A stretch of DNA of 64,000 nucleotides from a virus (IMGVR_UViG_3300034073_004742:5074-69073), one strand, 5' to 3'. Positions 14,273-63,637 are shown, counted from the stretch's first letter. A program made the numbers and translations. Notes: generated by a model from the sequence alone, not told the origin.

Positions 14273-14754
14273 CATATTACACCATTCAATTGTCTCAGCC
14301 ACTCAAGATTTGGATCTATATAAGAAATTTTCATACCGCTCATTTCAACGAACATATCGAATCTATTTTTTGCATCATTATCAAATAAAATTGTGCCATG
14401 ATCGTCTATCATATAAACTGTATCTATGCCCTCTTGGTGTAGAGCTATTATGCAATCATTACAGCATTGACCAGTAACATAAGCTGTGCCACCATCCGGC
14501 CTAACAACACAATTAGCGAGAGCATTTTTTTCGCTGTGTACCATCCAATGGTATTTTTCAGGTCTTGTTAGAGGCAATTGGCTATCATCCAACCCTTTGG
14601 GAAATCCATTGTATCCTACCCCGAGAATACGATTTTGTTTATCGGTTATGACACATCCGTGCTGGGTATGAATATCGTGGCTTCTTTGAGAAACCACTTT
14701 GGCTAACCCAAGAAAATAATCGGTCCATGACGGTCTGTTTTTTGATTGTATCAT
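14272..14754 (-). CDS. dCMP deaminase
   Basis: QHGCVI...GYNGFP, HSEKNAL, GQCCNDC. Confidence 0.9.
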   Translation of the reverse strand: MIQSKNRPSWTDYFLGLAKVVSQRSHDIHTQHGCVITDKQNRILGVGYNGFPKGLDDSQLPLTRPEKYHWMVHSEKNALANCVVRPDGGTAYVTGQCCNDCIIALHQEGIDTVYMIDDHGTILFDNDAKNRFDMFVEMSGMKISYIDPNLEWLRQLNGVI

Positions 14755-15710
14755 TCATGTATTATACTGTCATTCCTGATCGTGTCAACCCGTTTTTGTA
14801 TGATCGTGGCTTTGTCAACAAACTCATATTTTTGAATAGGATTTGGTAGCATATGATGCCATTTGATTGTGAAATTTGATTCTGATTCATCTAATATGTG
14901 GCCATAAACATTAAGATCTTCTTGTAAATAACAGTCATTATTATATAGTTTTACCATATGAAAATAATTATTTGGAGCTTTAGTGTTTAAAATTTTTATA
15001 CATTGTAGTTGAGGATAATAAAAATTAAGATGATTATATGGAATAATATAACCAAATATTCTTTCCAAAGAATGAGAATACGTTCCCAGCATTGATTCAT
15101 TTACTTTTTTAGTCTCTTGAGATAATAATTTCTGAAGTAAATGGTTGTAGGGTAGAAAATGCTGTTTAAATAACTCTGTTTTGCTCATAAACATATTACC
15201 ACCAAAAAAAGAATATTGATATATGTTAGAATATTGAATATTTAATATGTCACACAAATATAAAATTTTTTGATTATGATATAGTTCATTATTGCTAGAT
15301 AGTAAAAATTTATTACCAATAGCGCCACAGTTGCTATGATGTATTGTTTTATAGTTGTTATTAAAAATATCATTATCACCAAAAAAATCGTGTAATAAAA
15401 TGTGTCTCCAAGCAATTTGATTGTATTGTCCTAATAAGCTTTTTTTACTATGTAGTTTTATAAAATATGGTTCTTTAATTAATTCTAAAATATTGAGAAA
15501 AGGAGCAACATCTGCTCCATAATTATCACAAAATAAAATTGTTGTATCAAAATTTTTTTCTGCATTTTTTATAATATGTTTTTGAGATCCGTTATCGTTA
15601 TACAAACAGAGGTAGAGATGGATATGATCCTTAAAAGGAGATAATATCTGTAAAAAATTGTTCCATAAATCTAAATAATACAAAGATAAACTAATAGCTA
15701 ATTTATTCAT
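14751..15710 (-). CDS. RgpF-like (rhamnan synthesis F) glycosyltransferase
   Basis: NYGADVAPFL, FIKLHSKKS, FFGGNMF, SHSLERIFG; start taken at MNKLAI. Confidence 0.8.
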   Translation of the reverse strand: MNKLAISLSLYYLDLWNNFLQILSPFKDHIHLYLCLYNDNGSQKHIIKNAEKNFDTTILFCDNYGADVAPFLNILELIKEPYFIKLHSKKSLLGQYNQIAWRHILLHDFFGDNDIFNNNYKTIHHSNCGAIGNKFLLSSNNELYHNQKILYLCDILNIQYSNIYQYSFFGGNMFMSKTELFKQHFLPYNHLLQKLLSQETKKVNESMLGTYSHSLERIFGYIIPYNHLNFYYPQLQCIKILNTKAPNNYFHMVKLYNNDCYLQEDLNVYGHILDESESNFTIKWHHMLPNPIQKYEFVDKATIIQKRVDTIRNDSIIHE

Positions 15711-16395
15711 CTTGTATATTAGGATAAAAGTTTTGTAGCAAAAGAATTTCAAATTGAAGTAAGGATTTAAGATTTTGTAAAACTTTTTTGGATATATTTG
15801 CGTTATAATTATTAGTATTTACTCTTGATTCTTCCAAAATAAGACCGAATGGATTGTTATGATTCAATTCTGTAATTGATTCATTCATATAATCTGATTT
15901 TATAATAAAATTATATTTTGATAATTCTTCTATAGCGATATTATATTTTGTTTCTATATCTAAGTTTAGATGGCCATATTTAAAATATGTTAAGTAATCT
16001 ATGGTTATGTTACCGTATTCTTTAGTTTTTTCTTTTAGTATATTGTATGAACAGTATTCTGGATTTAATTTATCAAAAAAATACATATGGCTAATAAATC
16101 TTAATATAGGATGTCTAATACTAATAATCCTGAATGTTGAAGAAATATCTAAATTAAAAGTTTTTTCAAAAAAATATGCATAACTATGATCAGCAAATAA
16201 TTTTGTGTCATTATGAATAATGGGTATATATTGGTTATCTTTTTGTAAACATATATTATTGTGTGTAAATTCTGATATATATATTGGGGTTTGTGAGAAA
16301 TATGGGTTGGATAAACAAGCTTTATATAAGGATGTTTTAAAGCTACTTCCTCCACACTTTGGGATATGATTAAAAATTATTTTAGAAAATTTCAT
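15703..16395 (-). CDS. Sulfotransferase-family protein
   Basis: FNHIPKCGGSSF 5'-PSB-like motif and IRHPILRFIS 3'-PB-like motif. Confidence 0.75.
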   Translation of the reverse strand: MKFSKIIFNHIPKCGGSSFKTSLYKACLSNPYFSQTPIYISEFTHNNICLQKDNQYIPIIHNDTKLFADHSYAYFFEKTFNLDISSTFRIISIRHPILRFISHMYFFDKLNPEYCSYNILKEKTKEYGNITIDYLTYFKYGHLNLDIETKYNIAIEELSKYNFIIKSDYMNESITELNHNNPFGLILEESRVNTNNYNANISKKVLQNLKSLLQFEILLLQNFYPNIQDE

Positions 16396-17057
16396 AATAA
16401 ATACCCCATAGCGTTTTCTATTTTTATATCTAAATTTGATTTTATAATATCATATATTTCTTTTTTAATTTCATATTCTTGTTTTAAAAAATTATTTTTA
16501 ATATCTGTATATGGTTCAATATTTAATTTACTAGATATTATGTCTTGAATTTGTGATATATTGTTGCACAAGTCTTCGTATCTTATAAAGATATAATTTT
16601 GTGCAATTTTTGGAAGTTTATAAAGTAAATAATTATATTTTATATTTCTCATTTCAAAAATATTTTTATATCTATCTAAAGTATATATATTTCTTTCAAA
16701 AATAATTTCTTTTTCTAAACAAAGATTTCCATTTTCTGTTTCATATGAATATATGGGGTTTAATAAAAAATCTGTAATATTATTTTCAGTTTTCATATGA
16801 TATGGTTGTTTAAACATCGCGTGAATCCATTGAAATGGATCTCTAGTTATGCATATAAATAATGTGTTTTTCCCGCTAAGTATTATTTCTTTATTATGAA
16901 AACCAAAAAAATGTTTCCAGCCAAAAAAATATGTAACTGGTATATTATAATAATCAATAATAAGAGATTCTAAAAATTTTGTTCCGCAGTGTCTTTCTGC
17001 ATAAATAGTAAAATTATTTATTTGTGTATTCATATAATTTTTTATATGCGTAATCAT
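16392..17057 (-). CDS. Sulfotransferase-like protein
   Basis: AERHCGTKFL, GWKH, ITRDPFQWIHAM, IRYEDL. Confidence 0.65.
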   Translation of the reverse strand: MITHIKNYMNTQINNFTIYAERHCGTKFLESLIIDYYNIPVTYFFGWKHFFGFHNKEIILSGKNTLFICITRDPFQWIHAMFKQPYHMKTENNITDFLLNPIYSYETENGNLCLEKEIIFERNIYTLDRYKNIFEMRNIKYNYLLYKLPKIAQNYIFIRYEDLCNNISQIQDIISSKLNIEPYTDIKNNFLKQEYEIKKEIYDIIKSNLDIKIENAMGYLL

Positions 17058-17814
17058 GCATTTCTTGACTATGATAATAATTATTTATTATTTTATCTTT
17101 TATTTTGTATGGTAAACCGTCTGCACACACACATTCTACATAATTAGAACATAAATTACTCATAGATTTTATCATATCTCTATTTATAAAATGTGGAAAT
17201 CCACCCCAGTAACTTTTTATATCTGTATATAGTTCTTCATATTCCGGAGCTCTTGTAGATAAATACAATAAAATTTTATTAGTTTTTATGTTGTTAAATA
17301 ATATCTTCATTTCATTTAAATAATTTATTCTATTTTGTATTTTAATATTTTCAGCTAAATTTTTATCTTTTAATATTTCTTTATATATAGTTTCTGCCAT
17401 TTGAAATATAGAGTCAGAATTTTTATATCTAACCTGACCTTGATTTTTTCCTAACTCAAGTAAATCATTGTATATAGATCTACCAGAAAATATCTCAATT
17501 ATACAAAACTCTGCTTTATTTATAAAATCAAATATATGTTTATATTGATTAAAATATGATGGACCAGCGCCAGAAACTCCTAAATTAAATCCATTTATAC
17601 CAATAGTTTCTGATAACTGTTGAGTATATGGTCTTTGGCAATATCTACCAAATGTTCCAGCGGCACCTATTGACACAAAATATTTTTTATTAATATCAAT
17701 TGGTTTTGGTCCTCTAATGGCCCAATTTATTTTATCAAGCGTCCAAACTTGGTAATCTATAATATCTTTATCTTCTAGTTGATATCCTATATTGTGATTA
17801 ATTATATTATTCAT
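17014..17814 (-). CDS. DUF6473-like protein (SGNH-like, glycan-cluster associated)
   Basis: IGAAGTFGRYC..PY..L...NLGVSGAGPSYF. Confidence 0.55.
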   Translation of the reverse strand: MNNIINHNIGYQLEDKDIIDYQVWTLDKINWAIRGPKPIDINKKYFVSIGAAGTFGRYCQRPYTQQLSETIGINGFNLGVSGAGPSYFNQYKHIFDFINKAEFCIIEIFSGRSIYNDLLELGKNQGQVRYKNSDSIFQMAETIYKEILKDKNLAENIKIQNRINYLNEMKILFNNIKTNKILLYLSTRAPEYEELYTDIKSYWGGFPHFINRDMIKSMSNLCSNYVECVCADGLPYKIKDKIINNYYHSQEMHDYAYKKLYEYTNK

Positions 17815-17829
17815 AGAATAAATTCTTTA

Positions 17830-18159
17830 TTATAGTAGATATTGATAAATATAATCACTATGTTGAAAACACAAGTCTACTGTTTTTTTACACCCGACAT
17901 AAGGACCAACATTATTTTTTTCATAATATTTTATAATTTTTTTAAATTTATCAGAAGTGTAATTTTTGATGTAATTTATAAGATTCTTATTTTTTTCTAT
18001 CCAGTCGGGTCTATTGTAGAGTAAATTATCTGAAGAATCTACAAATAGAACTAATGTGTATTTATTAGCCCCATAGCATTGTTCCAATTTCCCTAACACT
18101 AATTGAAGTATTTCGAGTTTAACAAAACATTGTATTCCTATAACAAAATTATTTTTCAT
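17830..18159 (-). pseudogene. Truncated GT-A glycosyltransferase (N-terminal stub)
   Basis: LQLVLG...YTLVLFVD...CFQHSDYI resembles the last domain of the 978-aa neighbour but stops just before the expected EDD motif. Confidence 0.5.
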
Positions 18160-18173
18160 TGATTATAAACTTT

Positions 18174-21110
18174 CTATAATACATATTCTAGTTTAGTAAA
18201 ATTAATATTTGGATCAAAATCCCAAAAATAGTTTGGATTTTTATTGTGATTTAATTTGAGAAGTTTGTTTCCGGATAAGCAGCTATCTTTTAAGATAGTG
18301 TATAGTTGCTCATGTGTTAAGGGCTTATGAAATAGCGACTGTTGTCCTCTTTCATCTGCATGAATATCTGTTGCGCTCCATCCATAAATTCCTATGTGAG
18401 CGTGTCTATTCATTTCTGGCGCTATCGCTATAAGATTATGGGTATGTAGTATACGATTTATATCAAGATCTAATCCACATATTTCGTCTGATCTTATAGA
18501 ATCATAAAATGATTTAATATATTTATAAAACTTAAATCTGCTAATTACACAAGATCTTATAGATACATCGGATTTAACAATTTTATTTGGATTGCCTTTT
18601 GGTTTTTCCCAAGCGCCTATATGAAAATATAAGATATGGTCGTCTTTTCCAAGAGCTGCGTCGTGTAGTGCTAGTTCTTCGCACATTCTTAAATAATCTT
18701 TGCTAATTAATACATCATCTTCTCTAGTTATTACGTAATCATAATCGGTATTATCAAAAATATATTTAACACTATCATACCAACTATATTTACCACTATT
18801 TTTAGTCCAGTTTATTCTTTTATATTCGCTAGTAATTACCTTGTCGTAGTCTGATACTATACCATATTCTCTATGAGGATCAACAAAAATATACGTTTCA
18901 AAATTTTCAGAATTTTTAGCATTTTTTTGGTATTCTAAAGACAATTGTAACATAGCTGATCGGTCATAGTATGTGGGTATAACTATACATATTTTATCAT
19001 GGCAAGTATTGTTTTTTATATAGTTTTTTAATTGATTATTTTTTATAACATCTATAAATTTAAGTCTATTAATTTCTTGAAATCGCTTTGTTCCGTTCTC
19101 AATGTTCGTGCCAGCGCTAGATCCTTCGTTGTGAATAGCTATAGCTCTAGGTTCATATAAGGTATTTAAACCAAAGGAATGTCCTCTGTATTGTAATTCG
19201 CTATCCTCATAATACATAGGATAAAACGTAGTATTAAATACACCTATTTTATTTATGGTTTCTCTTTTGATTAATAAAAAACATCCGGAACAATATCCAA
19301 CATATTTAGGTATATTATATATGAGACTATTTGGATCATCATATCTTCCTATATTTCTACCAAATCCGTCTTCATACAATTCTGCCCCTGCTTCCGCTAA
19401 TCTTCCATCAGGAAAAATAGTTTTACCGCCAACAAAACCAATATCTCCGGAAGAATATGCGGATGATACCATATGCGATAGCCAATCTTCTGATACTATT
19501 TCAATATCATCGTTAATCAATACTACATCAGAATTTTTATATTTTATATCTAGCATTACTTTATTATTTGGAATAATAAAAAATTCATTACTTTTATTTT
19601 TAATATAAGTAACTTTATTTTCTATGTTATTTTCTTTTAAAAAATCTCCTATAGAATTTTCTATTTGCTGTGTTGTGCTATTATCTGTAACTACTATATG
19701 ATAATTTTTATAGCTTGTTTTTCTTATGATAGAAGATAGGCATTTGTATAGTCGTTCTTTGTTATTAAAAGCAACAATACTGATCACCATATGTTTATCT
19801 TCTAATGTATTTTTTAAAACATCAATACTTCTTTGTGTAGACACTATATTATGTATATGTTTTTGTCCTAAACTTGCTATTTTTTGTTGTTCATTGATGT
19901 TGTTTTTATAGAAAGCACATAAACTTTTAACAAAACTATCGTTACTAGTACAAATAAATCCATTTACAGAGTCAGTAAGATTTATGCCCTCATTACCTAT
20001 TGGCGACGTTATAATCGCTAGATTTGCCATAGCGGCATCGCATATTTTGCCTTTTATACCAGCACCCCAATTTAATGGGGCTAATAATACCGAACATTTT
20101 GAATATATACTGTCCAAATCAGGAACATGATCAGTAATAATTATCTGTTTATCATTATAAATATCAGAAGAAAAATTGATATTTTTACTATTAGGACCAA
20201 CAATAAATAATTTTGGTTTTTGGTAAATAATATTTTTGTATTCTTTAGTTTCTTGAAAATTTTTATATATTTGAACAGCTTGTTGTGCGGCATCTATATT
20301 TGGGCGATGATCATAACTACCAACAAATAAAATATTATATTCTATTTTTTTTATATTTTTAGGATCATGAATATTACTAAGAATTTTGATATTATTATTA
20401 TATCCTATTTCTTTTTGTAGAAATATTTTATCATCATTTGTAACAGTAAATATAACATTCGCTTTTTTATAAGTATTTATTTCTTTGTTTTTATTACTAT
20501 ATAATAGTTCGTCTGTGATATTTAATAATCCCGCATTTTTTCCTCTGTGTTCTCTAATCCAATGTATATCAACAGTATCAATAATAATTTTAATATTAGG
20601 ATAATAAGATTTTACAATATCAACATATTGATCTGCTATATCATACCAAGAAAATATTGCATTGTTATATATAACATTATTATCAACTGCTTTTTTTAGA
20701 TTTATATCAAAATATTTATCATTTTTTATATCTGGTAAATTAATTGTTATACCTAGTTGTTGTAATTTTTTAATATGATAATTTTTTTTATATCCATTAC
20801 AAAAAAAAGATACGTTATATTTCAAATATAATTTTAGAATTGTGAGTATTTGTAAAAGTCTATTACCTCCGCTGCTCATGTCGTAGTCTGGTGCGATTGG
20901 TGAAAAATAGAGCAGATTTTTTCCACTATTCCAAAATTCTGCATTATTTTTTGTTTTATAATCTATATAACGTCTATTTTGTTTGATTCCAAAATTTAGA
21001 TAGTGTTCTATACATGCTTTATCATTTGGTAATATTGATTGTATATCTTTGTTAATCTCAAAATATTTTTTAGGATTAAAGTTTATTGGTAACATGCTAT
21101 AGTTAGTCAT
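18174..21110 (-). CDS. Multidomain glycosyltransferase (GT-B/GT4-like + GT2 + GT-A)
   Basis: FVGSYDHRPNIDA, LAPLNWGAGIKGKI (GT-B); LINDDIE, GYCSGCF, YYEDSEL (GT2); ITREDDVL (third domain); N-terminal Y..N.DI...HY...G...R motif. Confidence 0.85.
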   Translation of the reverse strand: MTNYSMLPINFNPKKYFEINKDIQSILPNDKACIEHYLNFGIKQNRRYIDYKTKNNAEFWNSGKNLLYFSPIAPDYDMSSGGNRLLQILTILKLYLKYNVSFFCNGYKKNYHIKKLQQLGITINLPDIKNDKYFDINLKKAVDNNVIYNNAIFSWYDIADQYVDIVKSYYPNIKIIIDTVDIHWIREHRGKNAGLLNITDELLYSNKNKEINTYKKANVIFTVTNDDKIFLQKEIGYNNNIKILSNIHDPKNIKKIEYNILFVGSYDHRPNIDAAQQAVQIYKNFQETKEYKNIIYQKPKLFIVGPNSKNINFSSDIYNDKQIIITDHVPDLDSIYSKCSVLLAPLNWGAGIKGKICDAAMANLAIITSPIGNEGINLTDSVNGFICTSNDSFVKSLCAFYKNNINEQQKIASLGQKHIHNIVSTQRSIDVLKNTLEDKHMVISIVAFNNKERLYKCLSSIIRKTSYKNYHIVVTDNSTTQQIENSIGDFLKENNIENKVTYIKNKSNEFFIIPNNKVMLDIKYKNSDVVLINDDIEIVSEDWLSHMVSSAYSSGDIGFVGGKTIFPDGRLAEAGAELYEDGFGRNIGRYDDPNSLIYNIPKYVGYCSGCFLLIKRETINKIGVFNTTFYPMYYEDSELQYRGHSFGLNTLYEPRAIAIHNEGSSAGTNIENGTKRFQEINRLKFIDVIKNNQLKNYIKNNTCHDKICIVIPTYYDRSAMLQLSLEYQKNAKNSENFETYIFVDPHREYGIVSDYDKVITSEYKRINWTKNSGKYSWYDSVKYIFDNTDYDYVITREDDVLISKDYLRMCEELALHDAALGKDDHILYFHIGAWEKPKGNPNKIVKSDVSIRSCVISRFKFYKYIKSFYDSIRSDEICGLDLDINRILHTHNLIAIAPEMNRHAHIGIYGWSATDIHADERGQQSLFHKPLTHEQLYTILKDSCLSGNKLLKLNHNKNPNYFWDFDPNINFTKLEYVL

Positions 21111-21801
21111 TATAATATAAACCTATTTTAAGATTATGATGAGATACTATATATCCAAATATTCTTTCTAAAGAGTGAGTATACGTTCCGTGTTCTTCAT
21201 TAATTTTATTTTTTTCATTTTTCAGATAAGACTCAAGTATCGAATACTGCGGCAGTAATATTTGTTTAAACATATTAGTTTTACTAATAAAGGTTGATCC
21301 AGCAAAAAATGGACTATTTTTTAATTTAGTATAATTTAATTGTAGTAAATTACATAATGTTTTTATTTTATTTATATGTATAGATTTATCATTATTATGT
21401 AGTAAATATTTTTTATTTCCTATCATTCCTATTGTGGGCAATGATAATGTTTTAATAGCGCGATCTACAATAGATGGTTTAAGTAAATGATTTAAATCAT
21501 ATCTCCAATTGGTATTTCCGTATCCCCATAAACTTTTTTTACTGTGTGTTTTTATAAAGAATGGTTCGGAGATAGCTTTTAACTGATATAAAAATGGTGC
21601 TATATCAGCTCCATAATTTTCATGGAAACTTAGAGAATAGTTCCAAGACAAATTAGATAGGTCTTTTAGAATATGAGAAAAATTAGTATTAATACATAAT
21701 CCTAAATATAATTTTATCTTATATTTTATATTTTCAATTAGTTCTTTATACTCGTCCCATAAATCTGTATGATATAGATATAATGCTACAGCAATTTTCA
21801 T
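21103..21801 (-). CDS. RgpF-like glycosyltransferase, paralog 2
   Basis: NYGADIAPFL, FIKTHSKKS, FFAGSTF, THSLERIFG. Confidence 0.8.
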   Translation of the reverse strand: MKIAVALYLYHTDLWDEYKELIENIKYKIKLYLGLCINTNFSHILKDLSNLSWNYSLSFHENYGADIAPFLYQLKAISEPFFIKTHSKKSLWGYGNTNWRYDLNHLLKPSIVDRAIKTLSLPTIGMIGNKKYLLHNNDKSIHINKIKTLCNLLQLNYTKLKNSPFFAGSTFISKTNMFKQILLPQYSILESYLKNEKNKINEEHGTYTHSLERIFGYIVSHHNLKIGLYYND

Positions 21802-23378
21802 TACTGGTTAGTTGGTGTTTGGGTAATTGTTGGTGTTAATGTGGTGGTAGATGTTGGGGTTATTGTGGGTGTTAATGTGACGGTGGGTGTTGGGGTGGAA
21901 GTTTTTGTTACTGATGGAGTAGGAGTTTGTGATACATTCGGCATTTCTTTTACTAACATAATTTTATCATTGATACGTCCTTCTAAAATAAAACCCTTAT
22001 ATAATACTTTGATGTCATCATTACTATAAATATTAGGATTATATTGTAGTTGTCCAATTTTAAATGTATCACATAGAGCTTTAGTAGAAGTAGGAGTTGG
22101 AGTATATGTTGGTGTTGGTGTTGGCGTGTGAGAGGATGTAAAGCTTACTGTGGGTGTTGGTGTTTGAGTTCTAGTAACCGTTCTAGTGGGTGTTTTTGTA
22201 GGTGTACGAGTAGGAGTTGATGTTTTTGTTTGAGTCGGAGTTTGAGTATTTGTAACAGAAGGCGTGAGTGTGGGTGTTGGGGTAGCGCTTGCTGTAAGAG
22301 TTGTTGTTGTGGTTAATGTTGGTGTACAAGATGGAGTTAAGGATGGGGTTGTTGAAGGAGTGGGCGTTGGACTACTTGTTATACTTGGTGTGGGTGTTGG
22401 GCTAAGACATGCTCCAGGACTACCAAAAGTATTGTTTGCTATTCCATTATTAACATTAACTGTTATAGAGTATGGTTCTGTGTCGCTTTGTGTAGCATAT
22501 AGCCAATATCCACCTGTTCCATTTTTTGTTGGATCATAATAGGCTGCTTTTACCCACTCATCACGATCAGGAATCCAATAATATGTTTTATTTGAGGCTG
22601 TTGGTTTAACAAGAGGATTAGTGAAATTAAGAGAATATACCCCTGTTTCTGTCGAATTTACTGCTAGGCCACCGCTGTTAGGCTTGCTATTACTTAACCA
22701 ATTAATATATCTAGCCGCGCTATACCAGTTAACAAAATTAACTGGTTTTTTAGCCATATTATCTTTAACAGTATATACTATAGGATTAGTACCTGTTACT
22801 ACTATACCACCTCGAATATTTGTGGTCATAGAACCTATATATGGCCATATACTATTAGCTGGTACCGCCAAAGCATTATTTAAAGCAGGAACTCTTGCCA
22901 CATTATTTAAAAATAAGACATATTCTTCATTTGTTATAGTAAATTTAGATATTTTATATTCATAATTAACTTGTCCAAGATCATCTCCATAATGATTTCT
23001 ATTTGTGTCTCCAATATTAGAACCAGATACTGTTACAAAGTTACTATCTGAGATACCAGAATTTGCACAAACTCTAAATCCGAATCCTGGTCCTGTGTTT
23101 CTTATATCTATAGTGAAACCATCGATACTTATTAGGTCTACTAATCTTGAATTATAAGAACCGCCGTAATATAATATGCTTTGCGATGATGGTATTTGAT
23201 AATCTATAATTTCCCATACATTGCCATTTTGATCGAATGTGCCATAAAAACTAGATTTGCCGTTTCCGCCAACACTTGTAATATTACCATTATTATCTAT
23301 GGTTGATGGCCATAAAGCCGTACTATCATAGTTTGCACTATTACAATTTCCTAATACAGAATATTCTGGAACACTCAT
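21801..23378 (-). CDS. Circularly permuted FGE-sulfatase (C-type-lectin fold) domain plus Pro/Thr stalk
   Basis: GTFDQNGNVWE...GGSY...GFRV precedes TITNEEY, PVNFVNWYSA and PDRDEWVKAAYY; PT repeats at C-terminus. Confidence 0.8.
   Translation of the reverse strand: MSVPEYSVLGNCNSANYDSTALWPSTIDNNGNITSVGGNGKSSFYGTFDQNGNVWEIIDYQIPSSQSILYYGGSYNSRLVDLISIDGFTIDIRNTGPGFGFRVCANSGISDSNFVTVSGSNIGDTNRNHYGDDLGQVNYEYKISKFTITNEEYVLFLNNVARVPALNNALAVPANSIWPYIGSMTTNIRGGIVVTGTNPIVYTVKDNMAKKPVNFVNWYSAARYINWLSNSKPNSGGLAVNSTETGVYSLNFTNPLVKPTASNKTYYWIPDRDEWVKAAYYDPTKNGTGGYWLYATQSDTEPYSITVNVNNGIANNTFGSPGACLSPTPTPSITSSPTPTPSTTPSLTPSCTPTLTTTTTLTASATPTPTLTPSVTNTQTPTQTKTSTPTRTPTKTPTRTVTRTQTPTPTVSFTSSHTPTPTPTYTPTPTSTKALCDTFKIGQLQYNPNIYSNDDIKVLYKGFILEGRINDKIMLVKEMPNVSQTPTPSVTKTSTPTPTVTLTPTITPTSTTTLTPTITQTPTNQ
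21810..22405 (-). repeat. Pro/Thr (mucin-like) repeats
   Basis: TPTPSITSSPTPTPS..., interrupted by a short LCDTFKIG-containing segment. Confidence 0.9.
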
Positions 23379-23393
23379 TGATTATCCCGATTT

Positions 23394-24024: not shown

Positions 24025-24039
24025 ATTTTTGTCTTTCTA

Positions 24040-24448: not shown

Positions 24449-24471
24449 AAAATAATTCCTTATTATGTAGT

Positions 24472-24482: not shown

Positions 24483-24503
24483 AAGGTTAGGTTACTAAAA
24501 TAT

Positions 24504-49921: not shown

Positions 49922-50068
49922 TTAGTCTATAAATAAATAAGTAAAAATATTCTTTGATGGTTTTACTCCAAGGCTTGGATTTCTTTTGACCTGTTGCATA
50001 TCGTTTAGTCCTTGGAATATACCACAAATTCCAGATATAATTATTCCAACTAATATAATATAATTCAT
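49922..50068 (-). CDS. Small membrane protein, 48 aa (not in ORF track)
   Basis: MNYILLVGIIISGICGIFQG...; ATGA overlap with the upstream GT2 stop. Confidence 0.55.
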   Translation of the reverse strand: MNYIILVGIIISGICGIFQGLNDMQQVKRNPSLGVKPSKNIFTYLFID

Positions 50069-55789: not shown

Positions 55790-55821
55790 AGTATTGTTTG
55801 TTTGACCGCTTGAACAGATGT

Positions 55822-55849
55822 ATAATACACCCAATCTCTGGTTTGTCAA
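55822..55849 (-). promoter_or_regulatory. TTGACA-N16-TATTAT promoter carrying the GGGTG extension
   Basis: TTGACA AACCAGAGATTGGGTG TATTAT on the minus strand. Confidence 0.65.
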
Positions 55850-55872
55850 CACTAAAATTAGCATTTCGTGTC

Positions 55873-55900
55873 TTGACAAAGATTCACATAGTACTATTAT
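55873..55900 (+). promoter_or_regulatory. TTGACA-N16-TATTAT promoter for the plus-strand cassette
   Basis: ttgaca 55873-78, tattat 55895-900. Confidence 0.55.
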
Positions 55901-55941
55901 TGGTGCAGCTGGGTGGTATTATATTTCTTAGGTCTACAATA

Positions 55942-57597
55942 GTGATAAATTCTACTATAGTAACTGGTATATGGGATCTTAGTAGAGATTCTTTGTCTGA
56001 AGGATGGGGTAGAAATTATCAGCATTATATTGATAATTTTTCTAAATTATTATCTTCTTTACCAGATGACACACCTTTGATGGTTTTTGGAGATCAAGAA
56101 TTAGAAGATCTTGTCTTTAGGCATAGAAATAAAGAAAATACAAGATTCTATATACATAAAAAAGTTGATTTTGATGGAAATTTCTTTCCTTTTTTTAAAC
56201 AAGTACAGCAAATAAGACAAAGCGATAATTGGTTAAATCAAGTTGGATGGTTAAGAGATAGTACTCAAGCAAAACTAGATTACTATAACCCTATGGTAAT
56301 GAGCAAAATGTTTCTTTTGCATAATGCCAAGATATTTAATCCATTTAGTACAGAGTATATATTTTGGTTGGATGGTGGAATAACTAATACTGTTCATCCT
56401 GGATATTTTAGCCATGATAAAGTTCTAAATAAATTAGAGCATATTGTTAAAAAATTTCTATTCATATGTTTTCCATATGAAACCACAACAGAAATTCATG
56501 GGTTCGATATCGATCAAATGAATCAAATTTGTGATGCTAGTGTTAACAGGGTAGCTAGGGGCGGATTTTTTGGTGGTCATATAGACTATATTTCTCAAGC
56601 TAGCAGTCTATACTATAGTTTATTGAGTCAAACTTTGAATAATAATCTTATGGGAACTGAAGAGAGTATATTTACAATAATGACCTATAAAGATCCAGAC
56701 ACTTATACTTATGAACCTATTGAGTCAAATGGATTAATAAATACATTTTTTGAAAAACTTAAAAATAGCCAAACATTAATAGAAACTAAAGTTCAAAGTA
56801 CCAGAAAACCTTTTAAAAATAATGATACGGTTTTATATATTAATGCTTTTAATTCTCCAGACCAATTACAAATGGTATTAGATAGTTTTGAAAAATATGA
56901 TAATAATTTTATTAAACAAACTAGTAAAATATTATTAAATAATTCGACTAAAGAAGAATTATTACCTATATATGATATAATATGCGATAAATATAATTTT
57001 AAAGAACATCTAAAATATGGAAATAAAGGAGTTTGTGGATCTCGACAGTTTGCAGCGGAACATTTTTCCGATTCTGGATCCAGATATATGATATTTTTTG
57101 AAGATGATATGCTTTTAGATTTTAATGGATTTTGTAATTTTGGTTTTAATAAAAATATTCATAATTTATTTAATCGCATTGTTAAAATAATGAAAAATGA
57201 AGAATATGATTTTCTTAAATTTACTTTTAGTGAATTCTATGGCCATAATGGAGAACAATGGAGTTGGCATAATGTTCCTGGAGAAAAAAGATTAAAATAT
57301 TTTGGTCGTACTCAAAAAAAACCAAACACAAAATTCTCTTGCATAAAATCTATAGATGGTCTTCCTTATGCCGAGGGAGAGGTTTACTACAGTAATTGGC
57401 CTCATATTATAGATCAAGAAGGTAATCAAAAGTGTTTTCTTGATACAAAATGGGATCATCCTTTCGAGCAAACATGGATGAGTCACATATACACTTTAAC
57501 AATCGAGAATAAAGTAAAACCAGCAATTCTATTAGCTAGTCCAATAACACATAATAGAGTCCATTTTTATGAATCAAATGAAAGAAGAGAAAATTGA
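55942..57597 (+). CDS. HtrL/YibB-family domain fused to a GT-A-like domain
   Basis: TIVTGIWDLSR, FWLDGGI, GGFFGG, GTEESIFT; second domain MIFFEDDM; GTG start proposed. Confidence 0.75.
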   Translation: MINSTIVTGIWDLSRDSLSEGWGRNYQHYIDNFSKLLSSLPDDTPLMVFGDQELEDLVFRHRNKENTRFYIHKKVDFDGNFFPFFKQVQQIRQSDNWLNQVGWLRDSTQAKLDYYNPMVMSKMFLLHNAKIFNPFSTEYIFWLDGGITNTVHPGYFSHDKVLNKLEHIVKKFLFICFPYETTTEIHGFDIDQMNQICDASVNRVARGGFFGGHIDYISQASSLYYSLLSQTLNNNLMGTEESIFTIMTYKDPDTYTYEPIESNGLINTFFEKLKNSQTLIETKVQSTRKPFKNNDTVLYINAFNSPDQLQMVLDSFEKYDNNFIKQTSKILLNNSTKEELLPIYDIICDKYNFKEHLKYGNKGVCGSRQFAAEHFSDSGSRYMIFFEDDMLLDFNGFCNFGFNKNIHNLFNRIVKIMKNEEYDFLKFTFSEFYGHNGEQWSWHNVPGEKRLKYFGRTQKKPNTKFSCIKSIDGLPYAEGEVYYSNWPHIIDQEGNQKCFLDTKWDHPFEQTWMSHIYTLTIENKVKPAILLASPITHNRVHFYESNERREN

Positions 57598-58244
57598 TAA
57601 ATAACGAAGAACTAATTAATATATTTACAAAAAATAAGTCTGTTACTTATTTTAATAAAAAATCTTCTGATAATGATCTTTTTCCATATTTAAATTATTG
57701 TTTAGATCATTCTTTAAAATCAAAAGACTATTTATTTATGGAATTAGGAGTGTTCACAGGAAATACATTTAGTTGTATAAGATCCTCACTACCAGAAGAT
57801 ATTAATCTATATGGTTTTGATACATTTACTGGACTACCAGAGGACTGGATGATAAATGAAAAAGATGTTCTATATGCAAAAGGTACATTTGCTCTAGACT
57901 ATATTCCGCATAGCACCCATAATACAGAATTTATAGTTGGAAATATAGAAAATACAATGACTCCATTTCTTCAAAAACATGACAAAAAAATTTCTTTTGT
58001 ACATTTTGATATGGATCTATATAATCCAACATTTTTTGCTTTAAAAGAAATGCATAATTATTTTTTAAATGGTACTGTTTTAGTATTTGATGATTTTTAC
58101 AATTTACCTGGATGGGAAAATTATTCATTTAAAGCACTTTTAGACTATGTTAATTTTTATAATGTTGAATTCGAACCATTATCAACAGTAGGCTGGTACG
58201 ACGGATGGGCTTCTGCTGCTATTAAAATAATAAATAGGATATAA
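57594..58244 (+). CDS. TylF/class I SAM-dependent O-methyltransferase
   Basis: MELGVFTG, YGFDTFTGLPE, VHFDMDLY, VFDDFY. Confidence 0.8.
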   Translation: MINNEELINIFTKNKSVTYFNKKSSDNDLFPYLNYCLDHSLKSKDYLFMELGVFTGNTFSCIRSSLPEDINLYGFDTFTGLPEDWMINEKDVLYAKGTFALDYIPHSTHNTEFIVGNIENTMTPFLQKHDKKISFVHFDMDLYNPTFFALKEMHNYFLNGTVLVFDDFYNLPGWENYSFKALLDYVNFYNVEFEPLSTVGWYDGWASAAIKIINRI

Positions 58245-58245
58245 T

Positions 58246-59520
58246 ATGAAAAAGACAAAATTAAAAAACAATACTATATTTATACAAATAGCCTCTTATA
58301 GGGATCCTCAATTATTACCGACCCTTAAAGATATGCTAGAAAAAGCTAAGTATGCAGAAAATCTAAGAATAGGAATATGTTGGCAACACTCTTCTCAAGA
58401 TGAATGGGATAAACTAGATGATTATAAAAATGATTCTAGATTTAGAATTATCGATGTTCCACACACGGATAGTCAAGGTGTATGTTGGGCAAGAAATAAG
58501 GTTCAATCCCTGTACCAAAACGAAAAATATACTTTACAACTCGATAGTCACCATAGATTTGTACAAAATTGGGATTCTGAACTAATAGATATGCTAAAAA
58601 ATCTTCAGAAAAAAGGACATAAAAAACCACTAATAACTTCTTATATTCCCAGTTTCGATCCTGACAATGATCCAGCAGCAAGAGTAAACGAACCTTGGAA
58701 AATGAATTTTGACAGATTTATACCAGAGGGAGCAGTATTCTTTCTTCCTGCTTCATTTGATAGTTCAGAAGATAAAACTAGTCCATTACCAGGTAGATTT
58801 TATAGTGCTCATTTTGCTTTTACAGTAGGAGATTTTTGTAAAGAAGTTCCTCATGATCCCAATTACTATTTTCATGGAGAAGAAATCAGTATCGCTGTTA
58901 GAGCATTTACGCACGGATACGATATTTTTCATCCTCATAAAGTACTTGTTTGGCACGAATATACAAGAAAAGGCAGAACCAAACAGTGGGACGATGATAA
59001 AATTTGGGGAGACAGAAATAGCAAGAGTCATCTAAGAAATAGAAAACTTTTTGAAATGGATGGAGAAAAAAGAGATATTGATTTTGGTCCTTATGGTTTT
59101 GGAAATGTAAGATCATTAAAAGATTATGAGTTGTATTCTGGTCTATGTTTTTCAAGAAGAGCAATTACAAAAAGAGTACAAGAACATAAACCACCACCAG
59201 ATCCTGAAACAACTGATTTGGACTATGACTCTTTTCAATCTCATTTAATGAGTATATTTAAACATTGTATAGATATTCAATATGGACAAGTACCCGAGAA
59301 CGATTATGATTTTTGGGCAGTCGCTTTTAAGAACGACAAGGGAGAAGACCTTTATAGAAAAGATGCAGATAAAGAAGAAATAGATAGAGTAAAAAACGAT
59401 CCTGATGGATACTGTAAAATATGGAGAGAATTTCAAACTAATATTAAGCCTGTTAGCTGGATAGTTTGGCCGCATAGCATTAGTAAGGGCTGGGCTGATC
59501 CTATAATAGGATATCTATGA
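58246..59520 (+). CDS. Gnt1-like (Skp1/mucin polypeptide) GlcNAc-transferase, GT60-like
   Basis: IFIQIASYRD, GVCWAR, LQLDSHHRF, SAHFAF, YFHGEEI...RAFTHGYD. Confidence 0.75.
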   Translation: MKKTKLKNNTIFIQIASYRDPQLLPTLKDMLEKAKYAENLRIGICWQHSSQDEWDKLDDYKNDSRFRIIDVPHTDSQGVCWARNKVQSLYQNEKYTLQLDSHHRFVQNWDSELIDMLKNLQKKGHKKPLITSYIPSFDPDNDPAARVNEPWKMNFDRFIPEGAVFFLPASFDSSEDKTSPLPGRFYSAHFAFTVGDFCKEVPHDPNYYFHGEEISIAVRAFTHGYDIFHPHKVLVWHEYTRKGRTKQWDDDKIWGDRNSKSHLRNRKLFEMDGEKRDIDFGPYGFGNVRSLKDYELYSGLCFSRRAITKRVQEHKPPPDPETTDLDYDSFQSHLMSIFKHCIDIQYGQVPENDYDFWAVAFKNDKGEDLYRKDADKEEIDRVKNDPDGYCKIWREFQTNIKPVSWIVWPHSISKGWADPIIGYL

Positions 59521-60362
59521 TTAATTTAATATGGCAAACAAAAGATGGCGATGAAACACAATTTGAATACCAGTATATTACAGAATATATATTTAAAGAT
59601 ATACAATATAATAAATATTTTGATAATAAATCTTATTCTACTGTATTAGATAATTCTGTTATTATATATTCTAATAATACAAATATAATAGAAAAAAATT
59701 TTAATGATTATCTATCAAGATTTGATTCATTAAAATTCAGATATTATCTTTTACATCTCTCCAACGAAAATTTAAACCATGAAGCAGAGTATTACTCCAA
59801 AGCTCATAGAGTTTATCGTCAATATTATGACTCTACTCTTAATAAAGACAACGTAGTTTTTATACCACTAGGATTTAAATCGGGTTATTTAAATAAAAAT
59901 ATTAATAATAGTTTTGTTAAACTTTATGATTTTATTTTTGTTGGACAAATTAAATCTGACAGAGAAGAACTTTGTAATATACTAAAAAATTATAAATCTT
60001 TTATTCATAATACGTATTCATGGAATTGTATATCTTCATTATCACCAGATAATTGTTCAAAAGTTTACTCTGAAACAAAATTTGCTCCTTGTCCAATGGG
60101 ATGGGTAAATCCTGACTCTTTCAGAATTATGGAATCTTTAGAACATAATTGTATTCCAATACTTAAATCTTATTACAATAATTTTGATTATCATACAAAA
60201 GTTTGGGGAGATACTCCTATTCCACGAGTAGAATCATGGCAAGAACTAGAAAAATTTAATAAACTTTCTGATATAGAATATCAAAAGTTACATAAGTCTG
60301 TTTTTGATTGGTACACAGAGTACAAAAGTAACTTTAGCAAACTAATAAAATCAACATTATGA
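59517..60362 (+). CDS. Exostosin/GT47-like glycosyltransferase
   Basis: FAPCPMGWVNPDSFRIMESLEHNCIPI. Confidence 0.7.
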   Translation: MINLIWQTKDGDETQFEYQYITEYIFKDIQYNKYFDNKSYSTVLDNSVIIYSNNTNIIEKNFNDYLSRFDSLKFRYYLLHLSNENLNHEAEYYSKAHRVYRQYYDSTLNKDNVVFIPLGFKSGYLNKNINNSFVKLYDFIFVGQIKSDREELCNILKNYKSFIHNTYSWNCISSLSPDNCSKVYSETKFAPCPMGWVNPDSFRIMESLEHNCIPILKSYYNNFDYHTKVWGDTPIPRVESWQELEKFNKLSDIEYQKLHKSVFDWYTEYKSNFSKLIKSTL

Positions 60363-61117
60363 ATAAAAATTATAGTTTTGATATAGGAATTACCACATTT
60401 AGTTTAAGACTAGATATGCTTAAAAATCTAATAAAAGATATAAGATCTTTTACTGATAATAATATTCTTTTATGCGTTAATGGAGAAAAATATGGTAATT
60501 TCGACGATATGTATAGAAATTCAATATTAGATTTATCAAAAACATATAAAAATATTTTTCCTATTTTTTTTATAGACCTAAGAGGTTTAGCAAAAATGTG
60601 GAATACAATCATAGTTCACGCTCTAAAAGACAATATTTTATTATTAAATGATGATATAATTATACAAAGCAGCAATATATTCGAAGTCGTAGAACAACAT
60701 ATCTCTGATAAAGAGTATAATGGACTTAGCATAATAAATGAAACTTTTTCATTTTTTGTAGTTAATAAATATTTTATTCATGATCTAGGTTATTTCGATG
60801 AAAGACTTCTTGGTTTCGGAGAAGAAGATGGAGATATCAAGTATAGAATCAAACAAAAATATAATAAAAATATTGGTAAAATAAATTGTTCTGGTATAAA
60901 TAATATTATTTCTGATATTAGGCATCCTGGTGTAAAAAACGGTATTGGTAAATATTCTTTATTTAATAGAACCTATATATTTAATGAAAAATATAATTGT
61001 AATGGAAATATTTATTATTTTCCAGATAATATAGAGTGTGAGAAAAAAATAGAAGATTATAACTGTTATCCATATGAAAATTTTTATCTAACAAACAAAC
61101 ATAAATTATTTGAATGA
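60359..61117 (+). CDS. GT2-like glycosyltransferase
   Basis: LLLNDDI, GYFDERLLGFGEEDGD. Confidence 0.75.
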   Translation: MNKNYSFDIGITTFSLRLDMLKNLIKDIRSFTDNNILLCVNGEKYGNFDDMYRNSILDLSKTYKNIFPIFFIDLRGLAKMWNTIIVHALKDNILLLNDDIIIQSSNIFEVVEQHISDKEYNGLSIINETFSFFVVNKYFIHDLGYFDERLLGFGEEDGDIKYRIKQKYNKNIGKINCSGINNIISDIRHPGVKNGIGKYSLFNRTYIFNEKYNCNGNIYYFPDNIECEKKIEDYNCYPYENFYLTNKHKLFE

Positions 61118-61850
61118 TAATATGTCTAAAAAAATATCTTTAAATATGAAATTTTGGCATGATGGTCAACCTAATTCTACTAGACTAAGGAATGTTATAT
61201 ATTGTTGGAATGAACTAAAAAAATTATCAAGATTTTTATTAGAAAATAATATAGATATTAAAACAAATATTTATGATTTTTCAGAACATAAAATTCTAGA
61301 AGAAGCTATTCATATTTCATATCCTGTTGGAGAATATAAAAAATCTGAAAAAACTAATATTATTCTAAAAGATGAGTCTGCTTCTGATTTTTTTATGATG
61401 TTTGATAGTGATGCTTTTTTTGACGTAAAGGACTATCAAAAATTATTAAATCTAATAGAATCATTAGAGCCTGGAGATGTTATTACTTTTGATTTAGGTA
61501 GATTGGATACTAATATAGAAAATTATTTAGTAAATAATATTTTTTATCCTGATAAAGCTGATTGGAATTTTGCTTATTCTGGTGAAAAAATTCATGGACC
61601 TTTAGGAAGAGGCCACATAGGAGGTCTTGGTGGAGTATATTTATGTGACACTAAGCTTTTGCTAAGTCTTGGTGGATTTGATGAAAAATATATAGGATGG
61701 GGAGGAGAAGATGGCGATATGTTAGGAAGAATTATGTATAGTAATATTCCTCATAAAATAAAACCAGAAAGAAATTTTTTTCCTTTTCATTTGCCTCATT
61801 TTATTGATTATGGTAATCCTAAATTTAGTAAAAGATTTGCTGATGAATAA
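61110..61850 (+). CDS. GT2/GT7C-like glycosyltransferase
   Basis: MFDSDAF, GGFDEKYIGWGGEDGD. Confidence 0.75.
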   Translation: MNDNMSKKISLNMKFWHDGQPNSTRLRNVIYCWNELKKLSRFLLENNIDIKTNIYDFSEHKILEEAIHISYPVGEYKKSEKTNIILKDESASDFFMMFDSDAFFDVKDYQKLLNLIESLEPGDVITFDLGRLDTNIENYLVNNIFYPDKADWNFAYSGEKIHGPLGRGHIGGLGGVYLCDTKLLLSLGGFDEKYIGWGGEDGDMLGRIMYSNIPHKIKPERNFFPFHLPHFIDYGNPKFSKRFADE

Positions 61851-62751
61851 AAAAGTACAAATAGAATGCTGGTGGGCATCTTCAAAAGATATAACACAAA
61901 GAACACTCGATCAGTTCTCTTTTAATAACAATACTTCTGATATAGATTTTGTTACAGATAATAACTATGATTGGCTTGTTGTATGTGGAAAATTACCTCA
62001 AAATTTTAATTCTACAAATATAAATAAATCTAGAACTATCTTTTTTGTTATGGAACCAAGTTGGTCACCAAATACAGATAAGGATGCGGCCAACTATAGC
62101 AAATATATTTGTACACATAATAAAAATATTTTTAACGATAAAAGTGCTATATTTTTTGAAGAACCTAATTATATGTTTTATGGAGGAAGAGGAGATAGCG
62201 GATGGAATATTGATACAATCACTAAATCAATATTTAATAAAACCAAAAATATTAGTTGTATTGTGACAAAAAGAGGTAATAGTTGGGGAACAAAAAATAT
62301 TTACGATGAAAGGGTTGCTTTAGCTGATCTACTAAGTATAGATGATCATATAGATATCTATGGTACTTTTTGGCCAAACAATGGTAAAAATATCCACGGA
62401 GAAATATGGAATAAATTTGTAGCTTTAAACGATTATATGTTTTCTATTGGTATAGAAAATACATCAGAAAATAATTATATTACAGAAAAATTTTATGATT
62501 GCATATTAACAGACACAATACCAATATATTTTGGGGCTCCAAATATTTCTGACTACTTCGATATGAATGGTATGGTATATTTAGATAACATATTCGATAC
62601 TAATAGATGTGCAACTAAAATCAATAATATTTATGAAAATATTTATAATGAATATAATTCTAAAATAGAATCATGTAAAAAAAATAAACTTACTTTTTTA
62701 ACAAATCATAATATCATAAATAAAATTAAAGAAATAATTTATAATGAGTAA
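61843..62751 (+). CDS. GT10 (alpha-1,3/4-fucosyltransferase-like)
   Basis: YMFSIGIENT...YITEKFYD...IPIYFGAPN; start taken at MNKKVQ. Confidence 0.8.
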   Translation: MNKKVQIECWWASSKDITQRTLDQFSFNNNTSDIDFVTDNNYDWLVVCGKLPQNFNSTNINKSRTIFFVMEPSWSPNTDKDAANYSKYICTHNKNIFNDKSAIFFEEPNYMFYGGRGDSGWNIDTITKSIFNKTKNISCIVTKRGNSWGTKNIYDERVALADLLSIDDHIDIYGTFWPNNGKNIHGEIWNKFVALNDYMFSIGIENTSENNYITEKFYDCILTDTIPIYFGAPNISDYFDMNGMVYLDNIFDTNRCATKINNIYENIYNEYNSKIESCKKNKLTFLTNHNIINKIKEIIYNE

Positions 62752-63637
62752 TTATATCGTTACGGCAATTTATGATAATTTATTTGGAACAGATCTTGGT
62801 GGTCGTCCAGCAAGAGGAGATCACTATCGACATAGTTTGAAATCTATTGCAAAAATTAATAATGCAAAATTCAAAATTTTTACAGATGATGTTGATGGTA
62901 TCAAAAATTTTATAGATACTAATATTACTAATATCACATATGATATATACAACTTTGATCTAAGAACCACAGAGTTTTCTGATAAAATTAACAAGATTAA
63001 AAATATAGAAGAAACTAAAAAATCTGTTAGATGTATAGAATTACAATATTCTAAATTATTATGGTTAGAATTAATTGCTAAAAATATAGATGATAATGAT
63101 TATATTTTTTGGTTTGATGCTGGCTTATCTTATAGTGGTTTAATACCAGAAAAATATTTAGGAAAAAATACAGAAGGATATCATAGTTTTTATTATTATT
63201 CTAATTTATTTAATAATACTTTATTAGACAATATTATATCTTTCGCAGACGATAGCATCTTTTGTGTTGCTAAAGACAATCTAAGATTTTTTTGGGACAA
63301 TGGATTACCAGAAAAATGGTTTATTAATCATAAAAAAATAATAGATTATCATATAATAGGCGGTTTATTTGGAGGTAAATGTAAAAATGTTAAAATTTTA
63401 TGTGAATATTTTCGTGATTTAGCTAATAAATTATTAGACAATGAAAATATATTATATAGTGAAGAAAATATATTAACTACAATTTATTTTAATTATACTT
63501 ATCTTTTTAAACCAAAATTTTTTGATATATGGTGGCATGAAAATAATATTTCTGGAGTAATGCCAAAAGAAGAAGGTTTGGAGCTTCTAAAAAGAGTTAG
63601 AAGTTTTTATAGAGTTTTAGAGGATTTTATAGAATAG
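62744..63637 (+). CDS. HtrL/YibB-family protein, paralog 2
   Basis: IVTAIYD, YSKLLWL, FWFDAGL, IGGLFGG, SEENILT. Confidence 0.7.
   Translation: MSNYIVTAIYDNLFGTDLGGRPARGDHYRHSLKSIAKINNAKFKIFTDDVDGIKNFIDTNITNITYDIYNFDLRTTEFSDKINKIKNIEETKKSVRCIELQYSKLLWLELIAKNIDDNDYIFWFDAGLSYSGLIPEKYLGKNTEGYHSFYYYSNLFNNTLLDNIISFADDSIFCVAKDNLRFFWDNGLPEKWFINHKKIIDYHIIGGLFGGKCKNVKILCEYFRDLANKLLDNENILYSEENILTTIYFNYTYLFKPKFFDIWWHENNISGVMPKEEGLELLKRVRSFYRVLEDFIE

Follow-up and report, generated by a model that had tools for sequence, protein, structure and literature searches.

Among the systems closest to the one described here are those built around the protist glycosyltransferases (GTs) of family GT60, namely Gnt1 of Dictyostelium, which acts on hydroxyproline of Skp1, and the polypeptide α-N-acetylglucosaminyltransferase (pp-α-GlcNAcT) of Trypanosoma cruzi, which acts on Thr of mucins; in the Skp1 pathway (PhyA, Gnt1, PgtA), Gnt1 is accompanied by a PHD-type hydroxylase. 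In the serine-rich-repeat adhesins of Gram-positive bacteria, GtfA/GtfB start O-GlcNAc chains in the cytoplasm on long Ser/Thr repeats, and variable transferases then extend them. Giant viruses and chlorovirus PBCV-1 encode multi-enzyme glycan machineries independent of host secretory organelles, and the viral 2-oxoglutarate (2OG) prolyl 4-hydroxylase of PBCV-1 acts on Pro-rich repeat peptides (PMC7019647). Virion glycosylation is also already known in phages: two or more glycoproteins have been found in virions of the Xanthomonas jumbo phage XacN1 (PMC5852040), and in mycobacteriophages, phage-encoded GTs act within the host cytoplasm on structural proteins of the phage itself (Freeman et al. 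2023, as cited in PMC12619734). The presence of GT60 in prokaryotes as well as protists has likewise been published (PMC7185993); in a literature search, no paper was found that links GT60 to phage stalks. Here, we analyzed a window of 64,000 nucleotides, positions 5074-69073 of the 77,698-bp viral contig IMGVR_UViG_3300034073_004742 (coordinates below are those of the window unless assigned to the contig), which encodes a GT60 homolog, other glycan-related enzymes, and a set of Pro/Thr (PT)-rich stalk proteins. We consider it reasonably probable, if far from assured, that these genes constitute a soluble, cytoplasmic protein O-glycosylation system of a large tailed freshwater phage, with stalk proteins of low complexity, encoded by the phage itself, as the targets.

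The proposed initiator is the product of the gene at 58246..59520 on the plus strand, a GT60/Gnt1-like polypeptide GlcNAc-transferase homolog, which matches PF11397 ("GlcNAc") with 243.7 bits (E 5e-72; Pfam matches were judged throughout against the curated cut-offs, here 21 bits) and PHROG 24687 with E 3e-173. The replacement of the DxD metal motif of GT-A enzymes by DxH is a hallmark common to GT27 and GT60 (PMC7185993), and the corresponding residues D100-S101-H102 are invariant across an alignment of 13 homologs that are 57-100% identical. When the AlphaFold model of the protein was compared with Swiss-Prot, Dictyostelium Gnt1 (Q8T1C6) was the top fold match (E 4e-16, 31% identity over 308 residues), with the next-best GT-A proteins far behind at only E 1e-5. 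A Foldseek search of the PDB with the same model returned generic GT-A matches only (RmlT, TarP/TarS, GalNAc-T2), and sequence and profile searches of the PDB gave nothing usable, bringing up no GT60 protein of solved structure. Thus, the Gnt1/GT60 assignment made in an earlier note on this stretch of DNA is upheld, and the protein is, as judged from its sequence, a true GT60/Gnt1 member.

The phage enzyme shares the PF11397 domain and the DxH motif with its protist relatives, among which it also has its best fold match. It resembles Gnt1 in being soluble and in having no signal peptide, and, like the T. cruzi enzyme, which uses Thr-rich peptides and Mn2+ (PMC3769586), it probably has Thr-rich tracts as acceptors. 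Unlike Gnt1, to which it is 31% identical over the catalytic domain, it carries a conserved extra C-terminal domain of about 100 amino acids, has an HtrL-type partner instead of PgtA, and is encoded in a phage with a bacterial host and with no Skp1, for which no dedicated search was made. The label "eukaryote-type" is too narrow for this enzyme because the family has hundreds of bacterial members and prokaryotes are listed in PMC7185993: homologs number more than 7500 in metagenomes, at least 113 in IMG/VR, and 364 in a one-genome-per-species bacterial collection, some of these on Mb-sized chromosomes. Only four cultured phages carry a homolog (46-48% identity), namely XacN1, in which ORF334 is 46% identical, its relative Xoo-sp13, and the Stenotrophomonas phages CM1 and RAS14. 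The XacN1 group belongs to a different lineage with a B-family polymerase, and a carbamoyltransferase gene follows the GT60 homolog; a giant neighboring protein has short PT linkers, and XacN1 has both ORF334 and virion glycoproteins.

The contig is 47% complete by CheckV, with a G+C content of about 30%. The left end of the window is a replication module encoding an intein-bearing nuclease/helicase, dNMP kinase, primase, DnaB, a UvsX-like recombinase, and ribonucleotide reductase; the contig also carries, besides a split DnaE, genes for a sigma factor, a ClpP-like protease, and a RuvB-like protein. The window itself offers replication genes and a ClpP-like protease only, and terminase, portal, and tail genes are supplied by a sister contig, G028 (IMG/VR, 120 kb). 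G028 overlaps the contig over the initial 34.9 kb of the latter, where the two are 91-97% identical in nucleotide sequence, and its remaining 90 kb encode terminase, portal, tail-fiber proteins, and three giants (5586, 2246, and 2704 amino acids). These genes of the sister identify the element as a tailed phage (Caudoviricetes) of about 165 kb or more, in agreement with the earlier designation as a phage, and, together with the sigma factor, DnaB, primase, and DnaE, led us to reject the possibilities that the contig is a giant virus of eukaryotes or a piece of a bacterial genome. The replication region had no megablast match among 50,697 phage records, and the lineage is very common in freshwater metagenomes, with 563 relatives of its DnaB in IMG/VR; its hosts are freshwater bacteria.

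The candidate acceptors are encoded on the minus strand. Translation confirmed that five proteins carry Thr/Pro stalks, with tracts of 30-220 residues, and that the (SPP)n and poly-Pro rods reported earlier are present. The protein at 21801..23378 has an FGE-sulfatase domain of the C-type-lectin fold (PF03781, E 5e-8) and, after it, PT stalks (PTS-rich residues 320-370, 402-433, and 483-523), and its paralog at 24504..25967 (38% identity) has an N-terminal PT stalk followed by the same type of domain (PF03781, E 6e-19). A 467-residue protein (30423..31826) has two PT stalks (residues 25-58 and 214-255) and a Gly-rich C-terminal domain, and a 434-residue protein (32437..33741) has a PT stalk of about 220 residues and ends in ...GQQYNFVP. 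A 1049-residue protein (33760..36909) consists of a Cys-rich head, 58 SPP units, a PT stalk, and an Asp-box repeat propeller identified by Pfam. It is followed by a 486-residue Cys-rich protein (36964..38424, 17% Cys) and by a 931-residue protein (38455..41250) with 29 consecutive Pro residues, SPP units, and Cys-rich repeats that span about 780 residues (21% Cys).

To this inventory, the genomic neighborhoods of GT60 add an association with PT-rich genes, examined in 80 viral loci and on bacterial contigs of the one-genome-per-species collection. The gene immediately upstream of GT60 was PT-rich in 17 of 78 viral loci compared with 52 of 1494 other open reading frames (ORFs; 3.5%), an odds ratio of 7.7 that is uncorrected for relatedness; these upstream genes nearly always lie on the same strand as GT60, and directly downstream no PT-rich gene was found (0/80). 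The 17 genes fall into 8 homology clusters whose globular parts, LamG heads and Cys knots among them, are unrelated, and other upstream neighbors have TPT-rich or collagen-like GTS repeats. Among the bacterial contigs, 25 of 385 ORFs within three genes of GT60 were PT-rich compared with 1 of 354 farther away. On a tree of 143 GT60 proteins, the PT-neighbor trait changes state 27 times (mean of 32 for shuffled labels), and therefore the association recurs across the family rather than having been inherited as one block. In the reverse direction, viral records of about 30 kb or more were picked solely by a (TP)6-coding tract or, as controls, by a random 14-mer; PF11397 was present in 9 of 36 and 1 of 33 records, respectively (Fisher p 0.014, uncorrected for relatedness or genome size). 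Co-occurrence with PT-repeat genes, which the earlier note had proposed as a check, was thus observed in both directions and in two collections.

Individual loci show further variations. In one locus (L051:2-2404), the PT-stalk protein upstream of the GT60 homolog is replaced by a collagen-like protein with long GTS/GSS triplet repeats. In Burkholderiaceae chromosomes, a VgrG-type spike of the type VI secretion system with a C-terminal (TP)n tail of about 100 residues is encoded near the GT60 homolog, three genes away in Ralstonia and Paraburkholderia (L219, L232), with similar arrangements in L220, L231, L241, and L249. In Jiulongibacter, Saprospiraceae, and Vicinamibacterales (L190, L175, L225), the PT-stalk protein adjoining GT60 starts with a twin-arginine-like signal (RR followed by a hydrophobic stretch), which would let the protein be glycosylated in the cytoplasm and then exported in its folded state.

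Only one other enzyme is conserved together with GT60, a 599-residue two-domain protein with an HtrL_YibB domain (E 9e-12) and a GT-A-like domain, encoded at 55798..57597 on the plus strand. Among viral loci, this gene lies beside GT60 in 46 of the 48 close ones and in 16 of the 32 distant ones, and it is also present in 28 of 75 loci of the bacterial collection, including 4 fusions to GT60. In the window, the order is HtrL, methyltransferase, GT60; in most of the close relatives, HtrL is directly upstream of GT60, and the TylF-type methyltransferase (57594-58244) is present in only 6 of 48. The remaining transferases are accessory, and so are the methyltransferase and sulfotransferases. An N-terminal hydrophobic segment of the HtrL protein was discounted as a probable artifact of an over-long, TTG-started ORF, relatives being about 550 residues long.

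The predicted compartment bears on the main rival explanation, under which the enzymes alter lipopolysaccharide (LPS), capsule, or another envelope glycan of the host, for example to block superinfection or change adsorption, with the stalks as unrelated neighbors. In its favor, polysaccharide pathways typically include families such as RgpF, GT4, GT2, Capsule_synth, and HtrL, the latter named from an LPS-core region; the enzymes vary between strains in the manner of surface-glycan islands; and phages commonly carry genes for GDP-mannose 4,6-dehydratase (GMD) and fucose synthase as auxiliary genes. However, when the 77.7-kb contig and the 120-kb sister (77.7 plus 90 kb, about 168 kb) were scanned for hydropathy, no ORF had more than two transmembrane-like segments, and hence there is no Wzx flippase, Wzy polymerase, ABC permease, or phosphoglycosyl transferase, so that the phage has no lipid-carrier initiation or export of its own. 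Moreover, such remodeling leaves unexplained the position-specific link between GT60 and PT genes in phages and bacteria, and every characterized GT60 member acts on polypeptides. We therefore regard host-glycan remodeling as unlikely. A cytoplasmic protein-directed system, by comparison, is consistent with the finding that neither the stalk proteins nor the enzymes of the window have signal peptides. In starting O-GlcNAc on long repeats in the cytoplasm and recruiting variable extending transferases, the system proposed here parallels that of the serine-rich-repeat adhesins, which differs in its GT-B (GT4) initiator, chaperone-like partner, and accessory Sec export of the substrate, none of which is present in the phage system.

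Genes that could provide the sugar supply were found outside the window. The absence of nucleotide-sugar synthesis genes, reported earlier along with the absence of a prolyl hydroxylase, holds for the window but not for the genome: the sister encodes GMD (E 1e-112) and a fucose-synthase-like epimerase/reductase, genes for GDP-fucose synthesis that fit the GT10 gene of the window, and the contig encodes a PF13640 protein (see below).

The structural module of the sister also provides the link to the virion. A 959-residue protein encoded between two tail-fiber proteins, with which it shares an N-terminal motif, ends in a PT stalk followed by ...GQKYNFIP, matching the ...GQQYNFVP end of the window protein at 32437-33741. 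The general form of this motif, Y..(G/A)Q..(N/Y)(F/Y)(I/V)P directly after a PT stalk, is present in 5 of 65 PT ORFs (the window protein, L166:1-2136, L170:10686-13208, L013:17438-18265, and L015:17788-19857, one of the five being of the tail-fiber type) and in 0 of 1496 others, and it may be a docking or recognition tag. A PT-stalk/Asp-box protein is likewise encoded within the structural module of the sister, and in distant relatives, genes upstream of GT60 encode proteins with tail-fiber-like N-termini and LamG heads. These findings argue against the alternative that proteins are glycosylated but are not virion fibers, the PT/SPP proteins being released at lysis or intracellular, or the targets being host proteins, with adhesive, matrix, or decoy roles. 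That alternative draws on the bacterial homologs located beside non-phage PT proteins (among them proteins with twin-arginine-type signals and VgrG spikes with (TP)n tails) and on the position of the stalk genes of the window in a replication/auxiliary region outside the structural module; given the PT-stalk proteins of the sister's structural module, we judge it decidedly improbable.

Under the favored reading, self-glycosylation of the stalks, the following steps would take place late in infection. GT60 would add the first N-acetylhexosamine, most likely α-GlcNAc from UDP-GlcNAc, with the metal held by DxH, to Thr/Ser in the (PTxT)n stalks, and the HtrL/GT-A partner (55798-57597) would then add the next sugar or sugars. 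A strain-variable set, comprising GT10 (fed by the phage GMD/fucose synthase), GT7C, GT2, GT4, RgpF-like enzymes, the TylF-type methyltransferase, and sulfotransferases, would decorate the chains. The products would be stiff, protease-resistant, hydrated stalks bearing heads with the FGE lectin fold, Asp-box propellers, or Cys-rich domains on virion appendages. Because the HtrL protein is the only partner conserved with GT60, extension into fucosylated, methylated, and sulfated chains is a step that we infer from gene content. What the analysis establishes is the set of genes, the GT60 membership, and the association across genomes; each chemical step, like the location on the virion, is an inference. 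Compared with the mycobacteriophages, where the glycans are carried by extensions at the C-termini of capsid and tail-tube subunits and the enzymes belong to other families (Freeman et al. 2023, as cited in PMC12619734), the candidate acceptors here would be long mucin- or extensin-like stalks, with a GT60 initiator.

The earlier proposal that the phage glycosylates its own stalks thus gains from the GT60 assignment, the co-occurrence, the lack of signal peptides and export machinery, and the XacN1 glycoproteins, and loses from the distance of 17-36 kb between GT60 and the stalk genes, which are not adjacent in the window, and from the conjectural nature of the extension. Several further points weigh against it. 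In the window and in its 47 closest relatives, GT60 is flanked by other enzymes; apart from the HtrL protein, the enzymes are poorly conserved with it, and the strain-variable block holds half of them. Several enzymes come from polysaccharide-synthesis families (RgpF, Capsule_synth, GT4, GT2), and PT linkers are common in non-glycosylated proteins. The AlphaFold model of the GT60 protein is of medium quality (predicted local distance difference test, pLDDT, 68), the virion location is argued from a sister genome and a short common motif, the association statistics are uncorrected for relatedness, and contigs selected by (TP)6 are more often fragments of large genomes.

Points for and against the proposal come from a putative oxygenase of the PHD type (PF13640, 2OG-FeII_Oxy_3; 31.4 bits, cut-off 27), encoded at contig positions 72091-72942, 3 kb beyond the end of the window and 7.5 kb past GT60. 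H120, D122, H213, and R222, corresponding to the HxD...H triad and to an Arg that binds 2OG, nine residues beyond the distal His, are invariant in 9 homologs. All 36 PDB matches are prolyl hydroxylases of the PHD/EGLN/OGFOD1 group, at marginal E values of 0.0015-0.03 over 70 residues only; the AlphaFold model (pLDDT 48) is too poor for use, and no PF13640 domain was detected in any of the 8 complete GT60-carrying viral genomes that were examined. From this last result, it follows that hydroxyproline cannot be the general acceptor, and a strict Skp1-like pathway with an obligatory hydroxylase was rejected. The oxygenase has 18 homologs in IMG/VR, at least 9 of them on contigs that also carry the closest GT60 genes, and 6 of the 18 are followed, 1.3-2.4 kb downstream, by genes for two proteins of the type of 38455-41250, which are rich in Cys and have tracts of poly-Pro or (SPP)n. 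The oxygenase is thus a sub-lineage add-on tied to Pro-rich rods and not a general partner of GT60. In this sub-lineage, its probable role is to hydroxylate prolines in the (SPP)n and poly-Pro rods; this could make the rods stiffer or provide acceptors of a second kind, in the manner of the Skp1 pathway. PBCV-1 and the giant viruses differ in their eukaryotic hosts, N-linked capsid glycans, and a hydroxylase of the collagen rather than the PHD type, and hydroxyproline has never been found in PBCV-1 virions. A broader scenario, which we find possible yet doubtful, is that hydroxyproline-rich and mucin-type glycoproteins are made in the bacterial cytoplasm of prokaryotes and their phages alike: the PHD oxygenase would generate hydroxyproline on (SPP)n and poly-Pro tracts, GT60 and the fused or adjacent HtrL protein would start glycans on hydroxyproline and Thr, and the module would serve both phage fibers and bacterial PT-tailed proteins, that is, those exported by the twin-arginine route and VgrG spikes.

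If self-glycosylation of the stalks is correct, very abundant large aquatic phages coat their appendages with self-made mucin-like, possibly extensin-like, glycoproteins, with effects on the sticking of virions to particles, mucus, and hosts, on survival of proteases, and on recognition. In addition, the large prokaryotic branch of GT60 and the HtrL family, in which viruses dominate, would each gain a first function, and Thr/Pro "linkers" beside GT60 genes would turn out to be glycosylation substrates. Being small and soluble, the module is testable, and perhaps usable, in E. coli.

Around these core genes, 16 glycan-related genes of the window were confirmed by Pfam and two more were supported by Atlas matches, which we treat as leads only. 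Of the approximately 20 such genes listed earlier, most therefore stand, and three are unconfirmed, including the second of two methyltransferases (50968-51591). The strain-variable block (14751..21801, minus strand) consists of two RgpF paralogs with 43% identity (14751-15752 and 21103-21801), a Sulfotransfer_2 protein (15703-16395), a sulfotransferase-like Atlas lead (16392-17057), a DUF6473 protein (17014-17814), and a 978-residue multidomain GT4+GT2 protein (18174-21110), all but the lead at or above the Pfam cut-offs. Of the three sulfotransferase-like genes proposed, one thus passes the cut-off and one is a lead; the third, at 29944-30420, matches Sulfotransfer_2 below it (E 0.04). In the sister, the block at 15526-26284 is replaced (G028 110489-116436) by a shorter, different set, with another RgpF gene and other FGE-PT proteins. 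Accordingly, the RgpF/sulfotransferase/GT4+GT2/FGE-PT block behaves as a hypervariable island in genomes that are otherwise 91-97% identical.

At higher coordinates than the stalk genes, the minus strand encodes a GT4 glycosyltransferase (47010..48077; Glyco_trans_1_4, E 1.5e-14), a GT2 glycosyltransferase (50065..50829; PF00535, E 2e-14), a possible exostosin-like protein (51572..52384), and a GT-A protein of the Mannosyl_trans3/GT8-like type (53371..54153; PF11051, E 4.6e-5, above the cut-off); a DUF6165 gene (52356-52745, at or above the cut-off) lies in the same region. On the plus strand, around GT60, are genes for an S-adenosylmethionine-dependent methyltransferase of the TylF/Methyltransf_24 type, a sugar O-methylation type (57594..58244, at or above the cut-off), a putative exostosin-like glycosyltransferase (59517..60362), a GT2-like GT-A protein with a weak match below the cut-off (60359..61117; Glyco_tranf_2_2, E 4e-4), a galactosyltransferase-like GT-A protein of the GT7C type (61110..61850; PF02709, Glyco_transf_7C, E 3.8e-10), a GT10 fucosyltransferase-like protein (61804..62751; PF00852, E 2.5e-10), and an HtrL-like protein (62744..63637). 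The GT4, GT2, GT7C, and GT10 matches also reach or exceed their cut-offs. Both genes called exostosin-like earlier fall below the cut-off for RXYLT1_C, with E 1e-5 (25.5 bits, cut-off 27) for 59517..60362 and E 0.09, its only match, for 51572..52384. Likewise, only the first of two HtrL-like genes, 55798-57597, is Pfam-confirmed; 62744-63637 has no Pfam match and is a lead from an Atlas structure (TM 0.73 to HtrL_YibB clusters).

The contig additionally encodes a dCMP deaminase and a nucleoside deoxyribosyltransferase-like protein, which, with the dNMP kinase, could be taken to indicate hypermodification of phage DNA, the GTs decorating modified bases, as DNA glycosylation is known in phages (PMC12619734). 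We consider this highly improbable, as no base hydroxymethylase or similar enzyme was seen, a set of about 20 enzymes including sulfotransferases and GT60 is without precedent on DNA, and the association with PT genes would be left unexplained.

Several other features of the contig deserve mention. Inteins or homing endonucleases interrupt several genes, with a LAGLIDADG insert in a 648-residue protein (26275-28221), another in the nuclease/helicase (37-2025), and DnaE split by an endonuclease gene (contig 1-5113). The promoter-like motif KGGTGTATW occurs at 8 sites (11077, 24474, 29795, 32403, 42296, 44105, 47019, and 55824; minus strand) compared with 2.8 expected, all on the coding strand and mostly 20-46 bp upstream of small genes heading runs of stalk and enzyme genes; because the genes that it precedes are small unknown ones, it was not used as evidence of co-regulation. 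A soluble PAP2-superfamily phosphatase/haloperoxidase-like protein without membrane segments is encoded at 45686-46333 (E 4e-9). Past the end of the window are minus-strand genes for an actin-like protein of the Volactin family (contig 70713-71720, L083:1714-2721; PF25216, E 1.7e-61) and for a DUF1501 protein with a twin-arginine-like N-terminus (contig 74825-76099, L083:5826-7100; E 4e-110). The DUF1501 gene is neighbored by a GT92/GT2_4 gene and a Capsule_synth-like one, together with genes for a cupin and a short NAD-binding protein, and the glycan-related region thus runs on past the window.

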